Source of the DNA: Amoebidium appalachense
Lineage: Eukaryota > Protista > Ichthyosporea
Assembly (NCBI GenBank): GCA_963693365.1
Contig: CAVNZM010000004.1
Span: forward strand, 8,894,468-8,958,467
DNA length: 64,000 nucleotides
Reading direction: 5' to 3'
The position numbers were made by a program, and so were the translations under genes. This document shows positions 6,048 through 19,963 of the stretch, piece by piece. Below the pieces are notes generated by a model. The model saw only the letters and a program-made list of their open reading frames with translations, was not told the origin of the DNA and did not search any database. Position 1 is the stretch's first letter; each line of letters starts with the position of its first letter.

Positions 6048-8386
6048 CAATACCTCAGTCGGGTGTCAGTTAATCACCCTAGAGTCTGCCTTGACATGAT
6101 AGGTGCACGTGCCTGGCGGTGCGATTCGCCGAATAGACGCCATATGATCGTCGCCATCACAATGATGATTGATCAGCATCATCAGTGTACTTTGTGTACA
6201 TGTGGCGCCATTTATCCGCCAGGTGCGTAACAGATCTTACAGTTATATCCAGTTGAAATTATAGAATACTGCAATTGGCGTTAAGAAGGAAATGTTTTTC
6301 TTCAAATTCTTTCTTACTCATAAAGATTGCTTCGGTTGGCTTTAAGAATAGGGTCGTGTATATATGGGTGAGCGCGTATACGTGTGTGTACGTGTACACA
6401 CATGCAGATACGAATCGGTTGGCACACGCGGGCTAATACAACTCACACCCCTGCAGCCAATCAAATCTTTCGCTCGATCCGTTCAGATTTTTGTCGCACC
6501 TCATTTCCAGAAATTATATTTTCCAAAAAAGGTTCTGGTTATCTATACACAAATAAAAGCATTACTTATCTATCCATTCTGAGGACGCGTATCTGTATCA
6601 TGATCTACTTACATTGATGGGGGGGGCGGGGCGATCGAGGTGTACCAATACCATGTGCGCGCATAAATACTTGTCATGATTATACACAACATGCTTGAAT
6701 CAAAATAGCTCTAGCTACTAATTGGCTGCAGGTAAGATATCAAGAGGATGGGCTTTTTTATTCCCTTTATGTATTCGATTAGAAACTGAAAAATGCTATC
6801 TCTCTGTCATCGGTGGTTGTCAAGTCTCTGGTGACAGGTTTTGTAAAATTCTGAACAAATTGGCTACTTTGGCTCCCGGGCCGCTTTATCAATGACACAA
6901 GATTCAGTTGCAACAGCATTCTTGTGTCCGAAATGGACCATGCGCCACACTGGTGCTCACGCCATCGGTACACAACAGTATGATCATGAATGCTACATAA
7001 AATAGTCTACTCTAAAAACAAAGGATTCAGAGCTCTGGAGCCAGTGCTTCATATTTTTGATTATGGAGAAGGTATTTTAATAAATCTCTGGTAATTGGTA
7101 ACGTGGTAACTAATAAAATTAGTAAGTGACGCCGCGGCCCGCGGCCCGCGGCCCGTGGCCCGCAGGACAGTTTTTGCAGCAGCGTCGTATGACTACAACA
7201 CGATGTGATTGGCAGGTTATACTTTTTTGGCCCGCTCCCTCGTGCGCACGTGCACGTGTGCTCTGCCCGGATCATGATTCTCGGAATTGTTCCTCGAATA
7301 TAGCCCAACCTCGTTTGAATCAATCTGGTCAGAGTTCGAGGATATAAAAAGCCGCCCTGTAACCATCTTCTTTCCTCGATTAAATCCTCCTCGAGGATAG
7401 GCCCACATGCCAGGAGTATCATTTTTACCCAGAAGCACGGCCATCTAGATGGCCGTGCCCAGAAGGGGACGTGCACATGTGACTTCAAGTCGCCGCTTCA
7501 CGAAGCGTATCCTACTATGTAGTGTGTGTGCACACTGTGTGCACGTGTGTGTATGTGTGTGTGTGTGCTCGTGTGTGCGTGCGTGTGTTTCTCTTCTTTC
7601 TCGGCTCGCTCCCGGGCGCTCGCCCTACGCTCGCCCCGGGGCTCGCCCCTTGTAGGTACGTACGCTACAATAGTAAAAAGTCACCTACAAAAGACTCAAG
7701 TCGCAGCTTAAAGTCAGGACAAGTCACCAGCTCCTCTCACCAATTATACTAATTAGTCAAGTCGGCATAACTTGACTTGGCCGAAGTCAGGGTTTCCGTG
7801 ACTTCAAGTCGCAACTTTACGACTCTGCGCTCGCCGGCGAAGCCTCGCATTTTGATGATGGGTACAGCTCGCCCCAGCGCTTGCTCAATACGATTGGACC
7901 AAAAGCAGTGATGGAGCACCGCGCTATAGTTTATGCAAACTGATTGGATCACGCCTTGATTTTTGCAACCTGATTGGTTCCGGGATTATTGCGAACGGCT
8001 TAGTTCCTTCCCTTCCCCAGACCCTATCCTATCCCTATCTCCGTCGGTCACGCGACCTCCAAACTAAGTGACCGAGGTCACCAGTGGGAATCACGATTCG
8101 TCATGTCATGCAGATATATAGACATTTCATTCATATGATGATATGCTCCCAAATGTATTATCATCGTACACTGTAGTGGATAAGTCTTCAAGCTATATTG
8201 ATGTAGTACAGTGGCATAAAAAGAACAATACTACGGTAACATGATCATCCGATGTAATTGGCCCGAATCACGCGATCAAGCCGTGGCTGCACCGTGATGT
8301 ACATGTACAATACGTATATCCACGCTGTCAGTATACGTATGATCATGACTGATCCGATGATGATCGTGATGATCTGATTGTGAGCG

Positions 8387-8432
8387 GTCTAGTTATTTCA
8401 TCTCGCCCCCCTCCCTCTCTACTCTTATTCTA
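8387..8432 (+). repeat. Left terminal inverted repeat of the mitochondrial segment
   Basis: GTCTAGTTATTTCATCTCGCCCCC (8387-8410) matches the reverse complement of 14733-14756 exactly (24 bp); an imperfect pyrimidine-rich match continues for ~22 bp. Confidence 0.9.
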
Positions 8433-8647
8433 AGCTTCCGTCACTATATAAGATGATAATTACAATCCTAAATACAACATGTGATCGAAATCCAGAAAAT
8501 CGTCAATTTTGGAATTTTACCTATCATAGTTTGGAATTTATGAATTTTATAAGAATCTTAAATTGTAATTAACAGATTTATAAGATAGAATAAGTAATTT
8601 AGTACGATTAACATTGTATGTTAGGAATTAAATTAAATCATTCAATG

Positions 8648-8663
8648 TTAGGAAATAATAAAG
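8648..8663 (+). promoter_or_regulatory. Conserved 16-nt leader before rps13 ATG
   Basis: TTAGGAAATAATAAAG-ATG; 15/16 identical to the leader of atp6. Confidence 0.6.
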
Positions 8664-9056
8664 ATGAGAAAACACGATAAACAAGAATTAATATATGTAA
8701 CAGAAGAGAAAACGAAAGGTAGAGAAATATTTAAGAAGGTGTATGGGATAGGAGAAAAGGAATATGCAACAATAAGTGTAGAATTAGGATTGTCAAGCAA
8801 TCAAGGTAGAGGAGTAACGTCATATGAAAGAAGTCAAATTGACAATTATATTAAGAGACGTATGAAGTTTACAACATTAATTACAAATGACTTTCATATT
8901 AAACCTATTGAACAAAATTTAAGAGCTGCTACTAATTCTAAGATTTTAACTTTACAAAACATTAAAACATATAAAGGTATTCGCCATAAAAAGGGATTAC
9001 CAGTAAATGGACAACGTACTAAAACTAATGCTGTTTCGGCTAGACGTAAAAGATAA
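8664..9056 (+). CDS. rps13: Mitochondrial ribosomal protein S13
   Basis: 130-aa ORF with VYGIG and the S13 signature IKTYKGIRHKKGLPVNGQRTKTNA; AT-rich, intronless. Confidence 0.93.
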   Translation: MRKHDKQELIYVTEEKTKGREIFKKVYGIGEKEYATISVELGLSSNQGRGVTSYERSQIDNYIKRRMKFTTLITNDFHIKPIEQNLRAATNSKILTLQNIKTYKGIRHKKGLPVNGQRTKTNAVSARRKR

Positions 9057-9100
9057 CTAGTTTATCTTAACAAACAAGTAATACCTTTAGAGGTTAGAAT

Positions 9101-9116
9101 TTAGGTAATAATAAAG
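9101..9116 (+). promoter_or_regulatory. Conserved 16-nt leader before atp6 ATG
   Basis: TTAGGTAATAATAAAG-ATG; 15/16 identical to the rps13 leader. Confidence 0.6.
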
Positions 9117-9866
9117 ATGATAATAGGATCACCATTAGAACAATTTGTAATAAATCCATTAGTAAGCATATCAATGATAGGAATAGATCTATCAATAACG
9201 AATTCATCATTAACGATGATAATAGCCATAATATTAATAATAACAGCATATAAATTAAGCATAGAAAGAGGGTACATCGTACCAACTAGAATACAATCTG
9301 TAGTAGAAATCTTATACGAGACTGTTTATGGATTAATTAAAGATAACATCGGAGAAAAAGGTAATGCTTATTTTCCCTTTATCTTTACTTTATTCACATA
9401 TATAGTAGTTTTAAACTTAATGGGAATGGTTCCTTATGTATTTAGTGCTACTGCTCACATTAGTGTTGCTTTAGCTTTATCATTTGGAATTTGATTCGGA
9501 GTTACCTTACGTGGATTTAGTCTTCACGGTATTAACTTCTTAAGCATGTTCATGCCACAAGGAGCTCCAATGGCTCTTGCTCCTTTATTAGTAATGATTG
9601 AATTAGTAAGTTATTCAGCTAGAGCAATCTCATTAGGTGTTCGTCTTGCTGCCAACGTGAGTTCCGGACATCTTTTACTTGCTATTCTAAGCGGGTTTGC
9701 TTGAACAATGTTAAGTACAGGAGGTATTTTAGCGGCAGTTAGTATCTTACCAGCATTAGTCGTATTTGCTATGTCTGGATTAGAATTAGCCGTTGCGGTT
9801 ATTCAAGCTTATGTTTTCACACTCTTAACTTGTATTTATATTAACGATGCTATTCATTTACATTAA
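9117..9866 (+). CDS. atp6: Mitochondrial ATP synthase F0 subunit a, 249 aa (TGA read as Trp)
   Basis: SPLEQF N-terminus, [42 protein letters not shown]. In-frame TGA at 9492 and 9702 fall in Trp-type contexts (GIW, GFAW); the frame continues to TAA at 9864-9866. Confidence 0.96.
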
Positions 9867-10128
9867 TTTTATATTATAACTCTATCTCTCCTCGATGAGA
9901 GACTAATTCAATGCAATAAATAGGCTTGAAACCGCTATATTTTAAAGATAATGTAACTATTTACTTGTAGACTTGTGCAACTTTGTTAATTTAACGGCTA
10001 GGTACCAAATGTCAAAGTGCAATAACCTAGTTATAAATAAACTTAGTTATGGCCAACGCATTGAAACATTTAACTGTTTTAACTAAATCCCAGTCCAAAA
10101 AGCTTTTTGCTTCTAGATTGTATGCCCT

Positions 10129-10601
10129 GAGTGGTAGCGGAAGAATCTGAATTTATTGAATTGATCTGAGAAGGTATTAGTTAATTATTTAACACATTAA
10201 TTCAGATGTGGTACCCGGTTCTTCATTCTTTAGAGAGCCTGATGTTTAAATTCAGCTGCTAAATGTAGACATGAGTAAACAAAAATCAGTGGATTGAAAG
10301 TCTAAGACGTAGATATTGGATAAAAGATCTGTGTCACTTACTTGCCCAAAGTTTTAGATTGATTGCGCGGAGTGGTAGCGGAAGAATCTGAATTTATTGA
10401 ATTGATCTGAGAAGGTCCTAGTCAATTATTTAATACATTAATTCAGATGTGGTACCCGGTTCTTTAGAGAGCCTGATGTGTAAATTCCGCTGCTAAATGT
10501 AGACATGAGTAAACAAAAATCAGTGGATTGAAATCTGAGACGTAGATATTGGATAAAAGATCTGTGTCACTTACTTGCCCAAAGTTTTAGATTGATTGCG
10601 C
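10129..10601. repeat. Tandem duplication, ~240-bp unit x2
   Basis: GAGTGGTAGCGGAAGAATCTG starts at 10129 and 10370; copies are near-identical with small indels. Confidence 0.92.
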
Positions 10602-11094
10602 AGAGTGTAACAGCTCGTAAGAGAAAGCAAAAGCTTTATTCAATGGAAGAACTAAAATAGCAAGAAAATCGTAATGGTATTTAGGGCCCTATTACTTTAA
10701 TGTCAATCTAATTATAAAGCTCTTTAGAGTATCACTACTCTAATGACAATGGCTTCGTATTCAAGAAACAATTCTAGTATAAAGGCTCTACTGAGACTCT
10801 AGTACTAACTCGCAACTCGTTTAGTCCTTGCAACTCGTTGAGTAGTTTCAATCTGACACCAGTGGATAGACGTTAATGCGTTAAAGCATGGATGGGATGT
10901 TATTACAGAAACACGGCACAAATAATACCATAATTTTAGGTAAAGTATGTACTGCTTGAGGAATTATTATTATCAATATAGGCATTTTATATAGGGTGAA
11001 TTGTCGTTTGATTTCAAATTAGATCTGTATTGCTTGATAAAATAGTATCGTAGAGCATGGGAGAGTGCAATTAACACAATGATCTATTATAAAC

Positions 11095-11305
11095 TTCGCT
11101 ATATGCGAGAACCTTCTTAGAACCTACGGGACTAGACAGGGATTTCTTTTGTTAGTAAAACAACGTTCGGACGGGCAAATCCGTAGGAAACTACTCGAGA
11201 TAAAATATCTATTAGTAAATTTCTCATATACTACATGCAAAACAATCTGTTACATATACAGGTTGGAAAATATAGTCCGCTCTTAGATTAAAGTCTAAGC
11301 TGGTT
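11095..11305 (+). ncRNA. Degenerate group I (IB-like) intron catalytic core, no host gene recognised
   Basis: P-like TATATGCGAGAA (11100), Q-like AATCCGTAGGAAAC (11178), R-like TTCTCATATACTACATGC (11221), P8 hairpin CAATCTGT/ACAGGTTG, S-like GAAAATATAGTCC (11266), P9 hairpin CTTAGATT/AGTCTAAG; correct P-Q-R-S order. Confidence 0.62.
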
Positions 11306-13289
11306 GGAATGAATAGTACTATAACTTCCTTCTAACCTGGAGGTTTAATGATATATCATATTTATTAAACTAATATTTAGTGTTTATCGAAAATACAGTG
11401 TACTGCAAAATCATATTGTTAAAGTAATAGGATTCTTGCAAACTCGTAAGAGAAAGTATAATACATAATGTGTCTTCAATACTAGTACCTGAAGTCTGCT
11501 TGTTTAAGGTGTACTCTAAGGAATTTTTAAAGAAATTATAAATTCATATTACTTTCTAACCCTATGCAAAAATAGGGACCTTCCTCTGTTAATTCATCGA
11601 TAGAATAAATTTAATTCTAGAATTTTAAGGATTTTAATTAGAAATCGGCAAGATAATAATACTTTTACTATCTTTGAGACCAAACTCATGAAATTGAATT
11701 ATTTGTGCCGATGCGTTAATTGGGCTAGGTATATGAGAATGCGATCTGCAAAGTTTAAATAAGTAATGTGATGTTAGTTTTTCACTGAAGAGTCTGTCCC
11801 TCCGAATTTTTACTAGAGTCTCAGTAGAGTCACCACTCATAAAATACTCGTTAAAAAGTAGTATAAACTCTCCAAGTTTAGAGCTATATGCAGGATTTTT
11901 AAGGCTGGTGTATTAAGCCTGCTTCGAAAACTAAATTTATATAAGTAATAAAAGAAAGTTTACGGTTTAAGCTCCTAGATTAAAGATTAAGTACTTTCGT
12001 TTAGTTTGTACTATTTTAACAGTTTGAATTTGTATGCCATCTGACAGATTAGAAAATATAGATGTATAGTAGTAGGACGGTTTAAAAATAATAAGGTGCA
12101 TATTTAAGAACCGAATAAGTTATTGGTTATGTAAGTAGAGACGTTATTATGACATATCACCAAAGAGATAAAAAGTTTAAAGGCGAGAGTCTCTCTTGAG
12201 CCTTCTAGCTAAGAAACGTTCTTATGCTTTAGTAAAATTCTCCTTACTCGTACAAGGTGAATGGGTAATTCTCAAATTACAAGAGTCTCTTCAAAGCTTT
12301 CTCGCTAAGAGAAAAGTCTTATACTCTTGTCATTATACGACGACAAGCTCGTCTAGTACTCGCAACGAGTTGGTACTCGCAATACTCTTTTGTTAAGAAA
12401 GAGATAATAGTTATGCTATGAAGTAAAAGCTTGTGGACTTAAACTAAATGATTTTACATTGGACAAAGTATAAATCTGTATTAGATTTTTTACCGTTGGA
12501 CAAATCTGAGACCGTAAATTCTAGTCTCGGAAAAGTAATTGCTCTAAGAGCATTAACGATACCTGGTACGGGGGGAGACGAATAAATTGAAATCGAGATT
12601 AGATCCCGGATATTTCTCAAGGACGAAGTTTAGGGTGACTTGACGGAGGACTTTCTTGATGGTTAGCTAAGGTGCCTTAACAAAGGACTTTCTTAATAAG
12701 AGAGCTTTATACCTGTAAAATCTAGAAAGGTAAATATTTTTAAGGTGCTCTGCGGTTTAGAGCATCATTCGTTTACCAAATTTCACGCTGTTAAACTACT
12801 ATTGATAAATATCCTACCCCCTTCCATATTTGTTAATAAGGTACAGGTCTTGTATTCTTGATCGTCAGGATTGTTCAATTATGGGATGCCTCTTTGTAAA
12901 TCATTTAACATTCGAGTCGTCTGTCAAGAAATATCCGCCTAAACCTAAGATAACCTTGTAGAATTTTCTATAGTATAACAATGGTTGCTACCTTTCAGCC
13001 GGTAATCTTTTAGTCGGATTTCTAAATTTATATTGGTTTACTAAGGAAATCTCCACCTATAAATATATCACATGGTCTATTTTTCTTGCAGATGACAAAG
13101 GGTGCTACTCTTTCTGCAGATAATCCTTTAGTTGAATGTATAAGATCTTGAGTCGTTTCCCAAGGAAATCTAAACCTACATCCCAATAAAGCTGGTCTAT
13201 TATTCTCGCGAGGTCGAAGTTTGTTATCCTTTAGGCAGGTCATATCTTAGTTCGATTTATAACATTTAAGCTAATTTTCAAAGGGAATC

Positions 13290-14590
13290 TCAGTATATTA
13301 CAAGAATAACCTGGTTTATTCTCTTTTGAATAAGACATAAATACATGAATCCATTAGGATCGAGAATAAGTGCGAATACATAAATGCATAAATCAATCGT
13401 GCATGAATCAATGGGGCTCTGGCGTGCATGGTATGAATCATTGGGACTCTTGAATATAAGACATAAGTAAATGTACTTTGGGGTGCAGGAGTACATAACA
13501 TGAATGCGAATGCATGAATCAATGATGGTCGCGCACGATATGACATAAGTATATAAGTCAATTATGAGCCTGCAGGAATTAGTGGTGCTCTTGAGTGTAC
13601 GGCATAGGTCAATGGTGCTATTAGATGCATGAATATATTAAAAATTGTGCAGGAATCCGTAGTGCTATTGAGTATATAACATAAGTGCTAATACATAAGT
13701 GCATGAAGAAATTGGGATTGTGGATATTCTTGTTGTTCTTAAATCTTATGGTTGTTCATGGGTACTTCTGGCAATCATGTATATATCTCATGGATGTATA
13801 TGTATGCTTCTTAGCAATACTGTAATAGACAACTCTTAGGAATCATGGACGAGCTATTAGGCACTAATTTCGTATTATGAATGTTGTTTAGCTATCTAGT
13901 ATGTAAATGGATCATCGATGTTAAGGAGTCCCTCGTGCATGTCATGGCATGAGTGCAAGGATCAATGGTGTTCTAGAAATAAGTGCAGGAATCAAGGATG
14001 CTCTAAGTGTATGACATGAATGTATAAATTAATTGGGTTCTGGGTGTATGGAATAACATGAGTGTATAAATCAATGGAGCTATTAGATGCATGAGTGTAT
14101 AACATAAATGCATGAATCAATTAAAATAGTGAAGAAATTGATTAGGATCATGTAGTAATCAGTGGTGTTCTTGGGTACATGAATCAATTGGGATCGTGGA
14201 CATCCTTGTTGTTCTTAGATCTCATAGCTCTTTCTGGTTTCATGGCTGTTTATGAATCTCATGATTGTCCCTGTATGCTTCTTTTCAAAACTGTATGGAT
14301 CTCATGAATCTTATGGTTGTTTATGAATGCTTCTTAGCAATAATGTAATAGACAACTCTTAGCCATTATGGATGAGCTATTAGGCGCTAATTTTGTATTA
14401 TGAATGTTGTTTAGCTTTATTAAATATCAAGGGATCATCGATGTTAATGAGTTACTCGTGAAGGGTATAGCATAAGTGCATGGAACAATTAGGAATGCAG
14501 GAATCAATTGGAATCGGGCATAAGTAAATAACATGAATGCGAATGCATGAATCAATTGGGGATCACGCACGGTATAATATGGGTGCATGA
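13290..14590. repeat. Degenerate subterminal repeat array (~520-bp higher-order unit made of short CATGAAT/TGCATG motifs)
   Basis: A ~90-bp block TGCTTCTTAGCAATA...TTTAGCT recurs at ~13806 and ~14328; CATGAATGCGAATGCATGAATCAAT recurs at ~13499 and ~14532. Confidence 0.8.
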
Positions 14591-14657
14591 AATCCAAGAC
14601 GGCCACTCGGCAATCCAAGACGGCCACTCGGAAATCCAAGACGGCCACTCGGAAATC
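14591..14657. repeat. 21-bp tandem repeat x3
   Basis: AATCCAAGACGGCCACTCGG(C/A) at 14591, 14612, 14633. Confidence 0.95.
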
Positions 14658-14710
14658 ATAAAATTCCATCCTACCCTACATGTAGAATCTACACTTCCTA
14701 GGTACATGCC

Positions 14711-14756
14711 TAGAGTAAGAAGAAGGGAGAGAGGGGGCGAGATGAAATAACTAGAC
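14711..14756 (-). repeat. Right terminal inverted repeat of the mitochondrial segment
   Basis: Reverse complement of 8387-8432; outer 24 bp identical. Confidence 0.9.
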
Positions 14757-14790
14757 TGGGCCCCCCGAGCATGTCCTGGGGTGGGGGGGG

Positions 14791-15264: not shown

Positions 15265-19963
<4,699 letters not shown>

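Follow-up and report, generated by a model that had tools for sequence, protein, structure and literature searches.

Biases in codon use at the 5′ ends of genes are normally faint and statistical, extend over about 10 codons and have a debated cause, with folding, tRNA supply and mutation all under discussion. In the account of E. coli given in PMC12725619, the 5′ zone that affects expression covers only ~10 codons and is A-rich, weakly folding and low in G, and 5′ anomalies that extend further can be of mutational origin. The translational ramp of Tuller (PMC4288200; contested in PMC11249729) is presented as a slight enrichment of rare codons. For mammalian mitochondria, the 5′ coding region has been proposed as a protein-binding platform for initiation, read by mS39 and LRPPRC-SLIRP and U-rich from codon 7 of leaderless mRNAs (PMC7797035). 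According to PMC7027106, Amoebidium mitochondrial DNA comprises several hundred linear chromosomes, is about 20% coding and reads UGA as Trp.

Here we describe a codon bias in two mitochondrial genes of Amoebidium appalachense, rps13 and atp6, that is near-absolute, five times longer than usual, bounded by a sharp edge, evident even in single genes and absent from the related mitochondria tested. It therefore offers a clean natural case for separating folding, tRNA and mutation as causes, and it gives a first handle on gene recognition and translation in a relative of animals whose mitochondrial genome is fragmented. Our literature search returned no report of codon use that varies with position within genes in the mitochondria of Amoebidium or other ichthyosporeans; the 2003 genome description lay outside that search, and a prior mention is possible.

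We regard the bias as a new, extreme form of a known 5′ coding-sequence bias, one that works like the bacterial zone and differs from it in length, shape and G content. As far as PMC12725619 and PMC12661326 describe the E. coli zone, the two have in common a tie to the start codon, an enrichment of A-ending codons regardless of the amino acid and folding weaker than that of synonymous alternatives (with mixed results in local atp6 windows). The E. coli zone, however, is a gradual plateau of ~10 codons, high in A/T and depleted of G at 5′ synonymous sites, whereas the Amoebidium zone extends over ~55 codons, ends in a step, nearly excludes T and has raised G-endings, with an odds ratio (~20) strong enough to alter amino acids. 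Like the ramp, as outlined in PMC4288200, the bias has a length of tens of codons, with ATA and AGA early and ATT/ATC and CGT later, but it is a near-total switch by third-base purine that includes four-fold boxes. A protein-binding platform in the 5′ coding region is proposed here as it is for mS39 in PMC7797035, although the Amoebidium genes have a conserved leader before the ATG and exclude U runs, and their first ~55 codons are poorer in T than the remainder rather than U-rich after codon 7.

rps13 and atp6 lie on a high-copy linear mitochondrial chromosome

The window, a stretch of 64,000 nt, comes from a nuclear scaffold. GC content is 31 to 36% in the block at 8387 to 14768 and 40 to 62% around it. 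In run X1, a possible source of the window, single contigs identical to this block had a depth of ~170 to 200 compared with about 2 to 6 for the flanking bins, contig depth not being an exact copy number. Identical contigs were also found over rps13 and atp6 in runs X2 and X10. One X2 contig ended at 14768 and continued into what we take to be Illumina adapter, marking a free end of the chromosome. On the evidence of the inverted repeats, the X1 depth and the identical contigs, the block is a genuine high-copy linear mitochondrial chromosome, and its place inside the nuclear scaffold reflects either a recent NUMT or an assembly join. Separately, a nuclear contig of run X2 followed the window from 7964 to 8386 and then carried 59 letters that differ from it.

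The block has the makings of an Amoebidium-type linear chromosome: a few-kilobase unit bounded by terminal inverted repeats, Amoebidium-like genes with TGA read as Trp, and high copy with a free end. Terminal repeats, TGA as Trp and the pair rps13 and atp6 are likewise features of the multipartite linear mtDNA of Amoebidium parasiticum as described in PMC7027106. The two proteins are 91% and 94% identical to those of A. parasiticum (AAN04078 and AAN04079, consecutive accessions), so the window is a close but different sequence. Both reading frames were translated under table 4, with two TGA codons of atp6 read as Trp; rps13 encodes ribosomal protein S13. Coordinates are collected in Table 1.

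Table 1. Features of the mitochondrial chromosome in the window
Feature	Position	Strand	Evidence and remarks
Whole linear mitochondrial chromosome, ~6.4 kb	8387..14768	.	Terminal inverted repeats, contig depth, GC content
Left terminal inverted repeat arm	8387..8435	+	49 nt, 78% complementary pair; 21-nt core only at both ends
Shared leader TTAGGAAATAATAAAG + ATG of rps13	8648..8666	+	Purine-rich zone starts here
rps13, 130 aa	8664..9056	+	Pfam PF00416; 91% identical to A. parasiticum AAN04078.1
Purine-ending head of rps13, codons 1-55	8664..8828	+	A/G ending at 19/21 degenerate sites vs 9/33 after; break 52-62
Shared leader TTAGGTAATAATAAAG + ATG of atp6	9101..9119	+	Second copy in window
atp6 (ATP synthase subunit a), 249 aa	9117..9866	+	Pfam PF00119; 94% identical to A. 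parasiticum AAN04079.1
Purine-ending head of atp6, codons 1-55	9117..9281	+	A/G ending at 32/34 degenerate sites vs 38/106 after; break 49-56
Right terminal inverted repeat arm	14708..14756	-	Pair of left arm; shares 21-nt core

There were no tRNA genes in the window and no Rfam matches on the mitochondrial chromosome; sigma-70-like sites were at chance level (8 found, 9.5 expected). A search of viral and GTDB contigs with the terminal-repeat pattern found no match. Direct repeats occur in the non-coding part of the chromosome at 10111 to 10607, 13335 to 14556 and 14589 to 14657, comprising units 233 to 241 nt apart, short ATGAATC-like arrays and a 21-nt triplet, many of them common to other high-depth contigs. 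In the nuclear flank, two long ORFs at 16537 to 17619 (360 aa) and 19070 to 19963 (297 aa) had no Pfam match.

Each of the two ATGs has a copy of the 19-nt leader TTAGGWAATAATAAAGATG, and the window contains no third copy, against an expectation of 0.02 copies; nine matches to the leader pattern in viral contigs were left out of the analysis. The purine excess begins at the leader: purines account for 72% of positions 8646 to 8663, compared with 54% of the 164 nt upstream (8482 to 8645) and 52% of the 42 nt that precede the atp6 leader (9057 to 9098). Both of these segments contain pyrimidine runs, the latter two of them. In run X3, which is putatively RNA, a single contig passes unbroken from 8482 to 9609 through rps13 into atp6, although a contig does not reveal where a transcript starts. 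Its consensus has no differences from the DNA, and RNA editing was accordingly rejected at the consensus level. A reading of ATA as Met was also rejected because the nearly invariant residues I12 and I35 are encoded by ATA.

Both genes switch from purine-ending to pyrimidine-ending codons

The original prediction was that both genes use A-ending codons over the first ~55 codons and T-ending codons afterwards. The codon switch is confirmed, and the Ile counts on which the prediction was based proved exact: all 14 Ile codons among atp6 codons 1 to 52 are ATA and the 12 from 9420 on are 10 ATT and 2 ATC, while in rps13 4 ATA codons are followed by 8 ATT codons. The earlier count had omitted 7 Ile codons between atp6 codons 53 and 101 (in order, ATC, ATA, ATC, ATT, ATC, ATC and ATA), and these form the transition. 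Pooled over both genes, A-ending versus pyrimidine-ending Ile codons number 18:1 in the heads (codons 1 to 55) and 2:24 in the bodies. At four-fold and Ile sites together, the A:T ratio falls from 30:0 to 33:56 in atp6, with the break at codon 56 (Fisher P = 1e-10), and from 15:2 to 8:23 in rps13 (Fisher P = 5e-5). None of 300 within-family permutations reached the best break in either gene.

Although the positional switch is real, the bias sets purines against pyrimidines and does not concern A alone. The purine:pyrimidine ratio at four-fold sites pooled over both genes is 34:3 in the heads and 44:68 in the bodies, and within the Val, Ala, Thr and Ser boxes the shift is from 18:0 to 22:42. 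G-endings at four-fold sites rise to 7/37 in the heads from 5/112 in the bodies (P = 0.01), and the head G:T ratio of 7:2 is the reverse of that predicted by non-coding composition (P = 0.016). Two-fold A/G sites (Lys, Glu and Gln) are unchanged, with A:G ratios of 17:4 in the heads and 20:5 in the bodies. Since G-endings rise too while the A/G two-fold sites stay put, the rule is purine over pyrimidine. Two-fold T/C sites stay T-rich (12:2 in the heads, 34:16 in the bodies), and pure avoidance of U was rejected because T is kept there.

The expected shift in Ser, Val, Thr and Ala was borne out for Val, Ala and Thr and only in part for Ser, which has 7 TCA, 3 AGC and 1 AGT in the heads and 3 TCA and 8 AGT in the bodies. 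Gly shows no shift (GGA:GGT, 5:2 versus 12:5), and the Arg AGR:CGN ratio goes from 4:0 to 7:6. The 327 head nucleotides contain no pyrimidine run longer than 3 nt, only one CT step and 2 TTT, compared with 32 TTT in 804 body nucleotides; T content is 23.5% in the heads and 35.9% in the bodies. Stop codons in the +1 frame are more frequent in heads than in bodies (33.9 versus 10.9 and 12.7 versus 5.3 per 100 codons). We consider such hidden stops (the ambush idea) to be a by-product, as +2-frame stops fall and ACA, GCA, TCA and CCA make no stop.

The switch is a step anchored to the start codons

As originally predicted, the pattern resets at the second gene, with purine-ending codons restarting at the atp6 start codon, and the zone is tied to the start codons and the shared leader over a length of ~160 to 170 nt. 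Purine endings account for 94% of four-fold and Ile sites up to codon ~53 and 34% thereafter; through codon 45, 44 of 46 endings are purines. The break intervals obtained for each gene on its own have codons 52 to 56 in common. A step described the data best (AIC, 209.9) and a narrow sigmoid came next (212.0); the AIC was 228.2 for an exponential decay and 241.1 for a linear trend. For atp6 taken by itself, the step is equalled by a sigmoid with a width of 7 codons. A zone of such fixed length is more in line with a physical footprint than with an initiation effect that fades out.

Neither neutral composition nor N-terminal turnover accounts for the bias

The 4,841 non-coding nucleotides downstream contain 1584 A and 1585 T, and neither head nor body can therefore be the neutral state. 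Purines occupy 34/37 head four-fold sites against a non-coding expectation of 52% (P = 4e-7), and the bodies deviate in the opposite direction (44/112; P = 0.008). Turnover of N termini of the yeast type, as discussed in PMC11249729, predicts a bias confined to poorly conserved residues. Conservation of atp6 is 0.51 in the head and 0.67 in the body, yet the conserved head residues end in 11 A, 1 G and 0 T and the variable body residues in 26 T and 17 A; turnover is excluded on this basis.

We then compared the head/body log odds ratios of the two genes, 3.0 and 3.1, with those of other genomes. Across all 80 alphaproteobacterial atp6 homologues from a GTDB scan, with start codons located by script, the log odds ratio over 55 codons had a median of −0.02 and a maximum of 0.88. 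A metagenome scan yielded 6 mitochondrial loci with 46 to 67% identity, none of them Amoebidium, which on sequence grounds are probably ichthyosporean. Five of them supplied nine control genes (five atp6, two cox3, nad2 and cob), with L014 lacking the 5′ end and L015 used only before a frameshift. Head bias was never significant in these genes (smallest P = 0.11 among 8 tested), and in cob it ran in the opposite direction (8/22 versus 82/159). Protein-seeded scans of viral contigs gave no match. Long ORFs lie beside atp6 (L012, 2833 to 4755) and inside cob (L011, 2093 to 3076) in these related mitochondria, and they carry what we take to be GIY-YIG-like and LAGLIDADG-like motifs.

The constraint reaches the amino acid sequence

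The N terminus of atp6 is poor in Leu and Phe. Their combined fraction in the head is 0.13, a lower value than in any of the 118 other homologues counted (median, 0.28); the count leaves aside A. parasiticum, with 0.13, and an 80%-identical relative, with 0.15. The atp6 body is only mildly low (7/118). In rps13, 2 of the 102 homologues that passed length and start-Met filters (from 149) have a head pyrimidine load equal to or below the one seen here, and the load of the body is ordinary (78/102). A third gene, represented by the A. parasiticum cox3 protein, weakly goes the same way, with 8 of 117 homologues at or below its head Leu and Phe content and 33 of 117 for head-minus-body pyrimidine load; the cob search returned no protein named Amoebidium. 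N-terminal amino acid composition in the Amoebidium lineage may thus be nucleotide driven and should be interpreted with caution.

A close relative is represented in run X20, an RNA run that contains a small share (0.05) of the window, at contig depths of 2 to 3.6. It has 2 to 3 synonymous changes in ~50 head codons compared with 6 to 9 in ~51 body codons, a contrast that is not significant (P = 0.05 to 0.27) but whose direction would be that expected under purifying selection. There are 5 differences at 9138 to 9288 (the 4 shown being two ATA to GTA, one ATA to ATC and one ATC to ATT) and 9 at 9306 to 9460 (the 6 shown all synonymous). A purine ending was lost at only one of the head sites shown. 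Run X12 was left out as a base-converted library, 27 of its 28 listed changes being C to T or G to A.

The heads are predicted to fold weakly, but folding alone does not explain the choice of bases

The zone had been proposed to be A-rich and unstructured, to be judged by folding against synonymous shuffles. From −40 to the head end, the predicted RNA is less folded than 60 of 60 synonymous permutations for rps13 and 58 of 60 for atp6, leaving 0 and 2 shuffles that fold more weakly. Thus, the weak folding stands and the term A-rich is too narrow, since G-endings are enriched too. Within the atp6 head, 45-nt windows were not consistently weaker than shuffles (z = −0.9 to +1.5). Predicted 10-nt accessibility is 0.2 to 0.5 around the rps13 start and 0.06 to 0.20 in the atp6 head, compared with mostly below 0.06 in the body.

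At head four-fold sites, the folding model ranks A as the least-folding base and G as the worst (−0.24 kcal/mol), yet G is the second most common ending, and only 42% of these sites carry the least-folding base. Because G is enriched in the heads despite its rank, a drive toward minimal folding does not by itself account for the pattern, and the constraint looks like avoidance of pyrimidines. A stronger RNA:DNA hybrid was rejected as the cause, as the rps13 head shows it and the atp6 head does not.

A pyrimidine-poor loading zone is the favored explanation

The reading we favor, at a probability of roughly one half, is that selection keeps a pyrimidine-poor, weakly folding loading zone of ~165 nt behind the shared 19-nt leader. 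The evidence consists of two genes on one chromosome, examined as DNA. Selection on the mRNA, rather than local mutation, would keep the first ~55 codons free of pyrimidine runs, giving an open zone behind the leader on which the mitoribosome, or else a helper protein, would load in initiation. The canonical pairs A-U, G-C and G-U each need one pyrimidine, so RNA stripped of U and C would be open; it could also suit a purine-preferring RNA-binding protein. Since folding alone fails for G, we favor a pyrimidine-poor segment that would be both open and possibly protein bound, acting with the leader. The combination of leader and purine step could help to call true genes among the many mitochondrial ORFs of Amoebidium.

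A bolder version strikes us as quite unlikely. The leader and a fixed coding segment of ~165 nt free of pyrimidine tracts would form a two-part license, read by a dedicated factor that separates genuine mRNAs from the transcripts of hundreds of chromosomes that are mostly non-coding. In that case, the N termini of mitochondrial proteins would have been rewritten by a nucleotide constraint.

A different role for the missing pyrimidine tracts is conceivable, if doubtful: a head without them may let the young transcript escape a termination or decay factor acting within ~170 nt of the 5′ end or the leader. The lack of runs longer than 3 nt in the heads, the single CT step, the disfavoring of both T and C with tolerance of G, and the step-like edge at an equal distance in both genes would all suit such an escape, which would mark true mRNAs in a mostly non-coding genome of many chromosomes. 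The Amoebidium genome as described in PMC7027106, with several hundred linear chromosomes and about 20% coding sequence, is of that kind. The factor itself, however, is purely hypothetical, the first pyrimidine run of at least 4 nt is only modestly unusual in its position (274 and 119 of 5000 permutations), and the stronger RNA:DNA hybrid is seen in rps13 only.

We think it unlikely that the heads record mutation without benefit, with the leader serving either as a promoter or as a site of RNA processing, and with a structure of fixed length behind it, such as an R-loop or repair patch, biasing mutation toward coding-strand purines. A sharp, fixed length is the expected trace of a physical footprint on DNA, and first codon positions are affected, as the replacement of Leu and Phe shows; nevertheless, a ~20-fold transversion bias would be required, and cytosine deamination yields T, not purines. 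At synonymous sites, divergence from the X20 relative is reduced rather than raised in the head, a weak argument, and the putative-RNA contig, which does not reveal a transcript start, runs unbroken from 8482 through a segment (8482 to 8645) that is unskewed. Mutational 5′ anomalies of bacteria are nonetheless documented in PMC12725619.

A ramp of slow codons is very improbable. ATA and AGA, read by scarce tRNAs, would slow the first ~55 codons ahead of a body of optimal codons (ATT/ATC, CGT, GTT and GCT), in keeping with the Ile and Arg counts and with a length near the proposed 30 to 50 codons (PMC4288200, PMC9828097). The strongest shift, however, includes the four-fold boxes, which mitochondria usually read with a single U34 tRNA, a good partner for A (PMC9828097, for chloroplasts). 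The loss of Leu and Phe is left unexplained, and ramp effects elsewhere are slight and disputed, according to PMC11249729. Hardly credible is a by-product of fast-evolving N termini, gene history or chance: only two genes are involved, the atp6 head is less conserved and recombination is possible because diverged atp6 pieces over 9226 to 9326 occur elsewhere in the genome, but conserved head residues show the bias in full and variable body residues lack it, two unrelated genes have one break point, and no control gene, among 80 from bacteria and 9 from mitochondria, approaches it.

Variant copies of atp6

The pieces over 9226 to 9326 were found in runs X1 and X2 as several copies with 3 to 12 differences, some with indels. 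They straddle the codon switch point, each has a depth of ~115 to 230 in X1, and they probably represent fragments of atp6 pseudogenes carried by other mitochondrial chromosomes. In run X3, the contig at 8482 to 9609 has a depth of 4274 and that at 9580 to 10019 a depth of 14.5, contig depth being unable to rank parts of the region; a hairpin is predicted near this change, at 9560 to 9578. The same run contains a second variant of the atp6 3′ end, with 49 differences and 5 gaps over 9580 to 9867, at a depth of 9.4. Finally, atp6 of the window differs from that of A. parasiticum at 14 places, and 10 of these lie close together in codons 181 to 216 (9657 to 9764). At 8 of the 10, A. parasiticum and the 80%-identical relative are alike, which suggests that the lineage of the window went through a burst of change.
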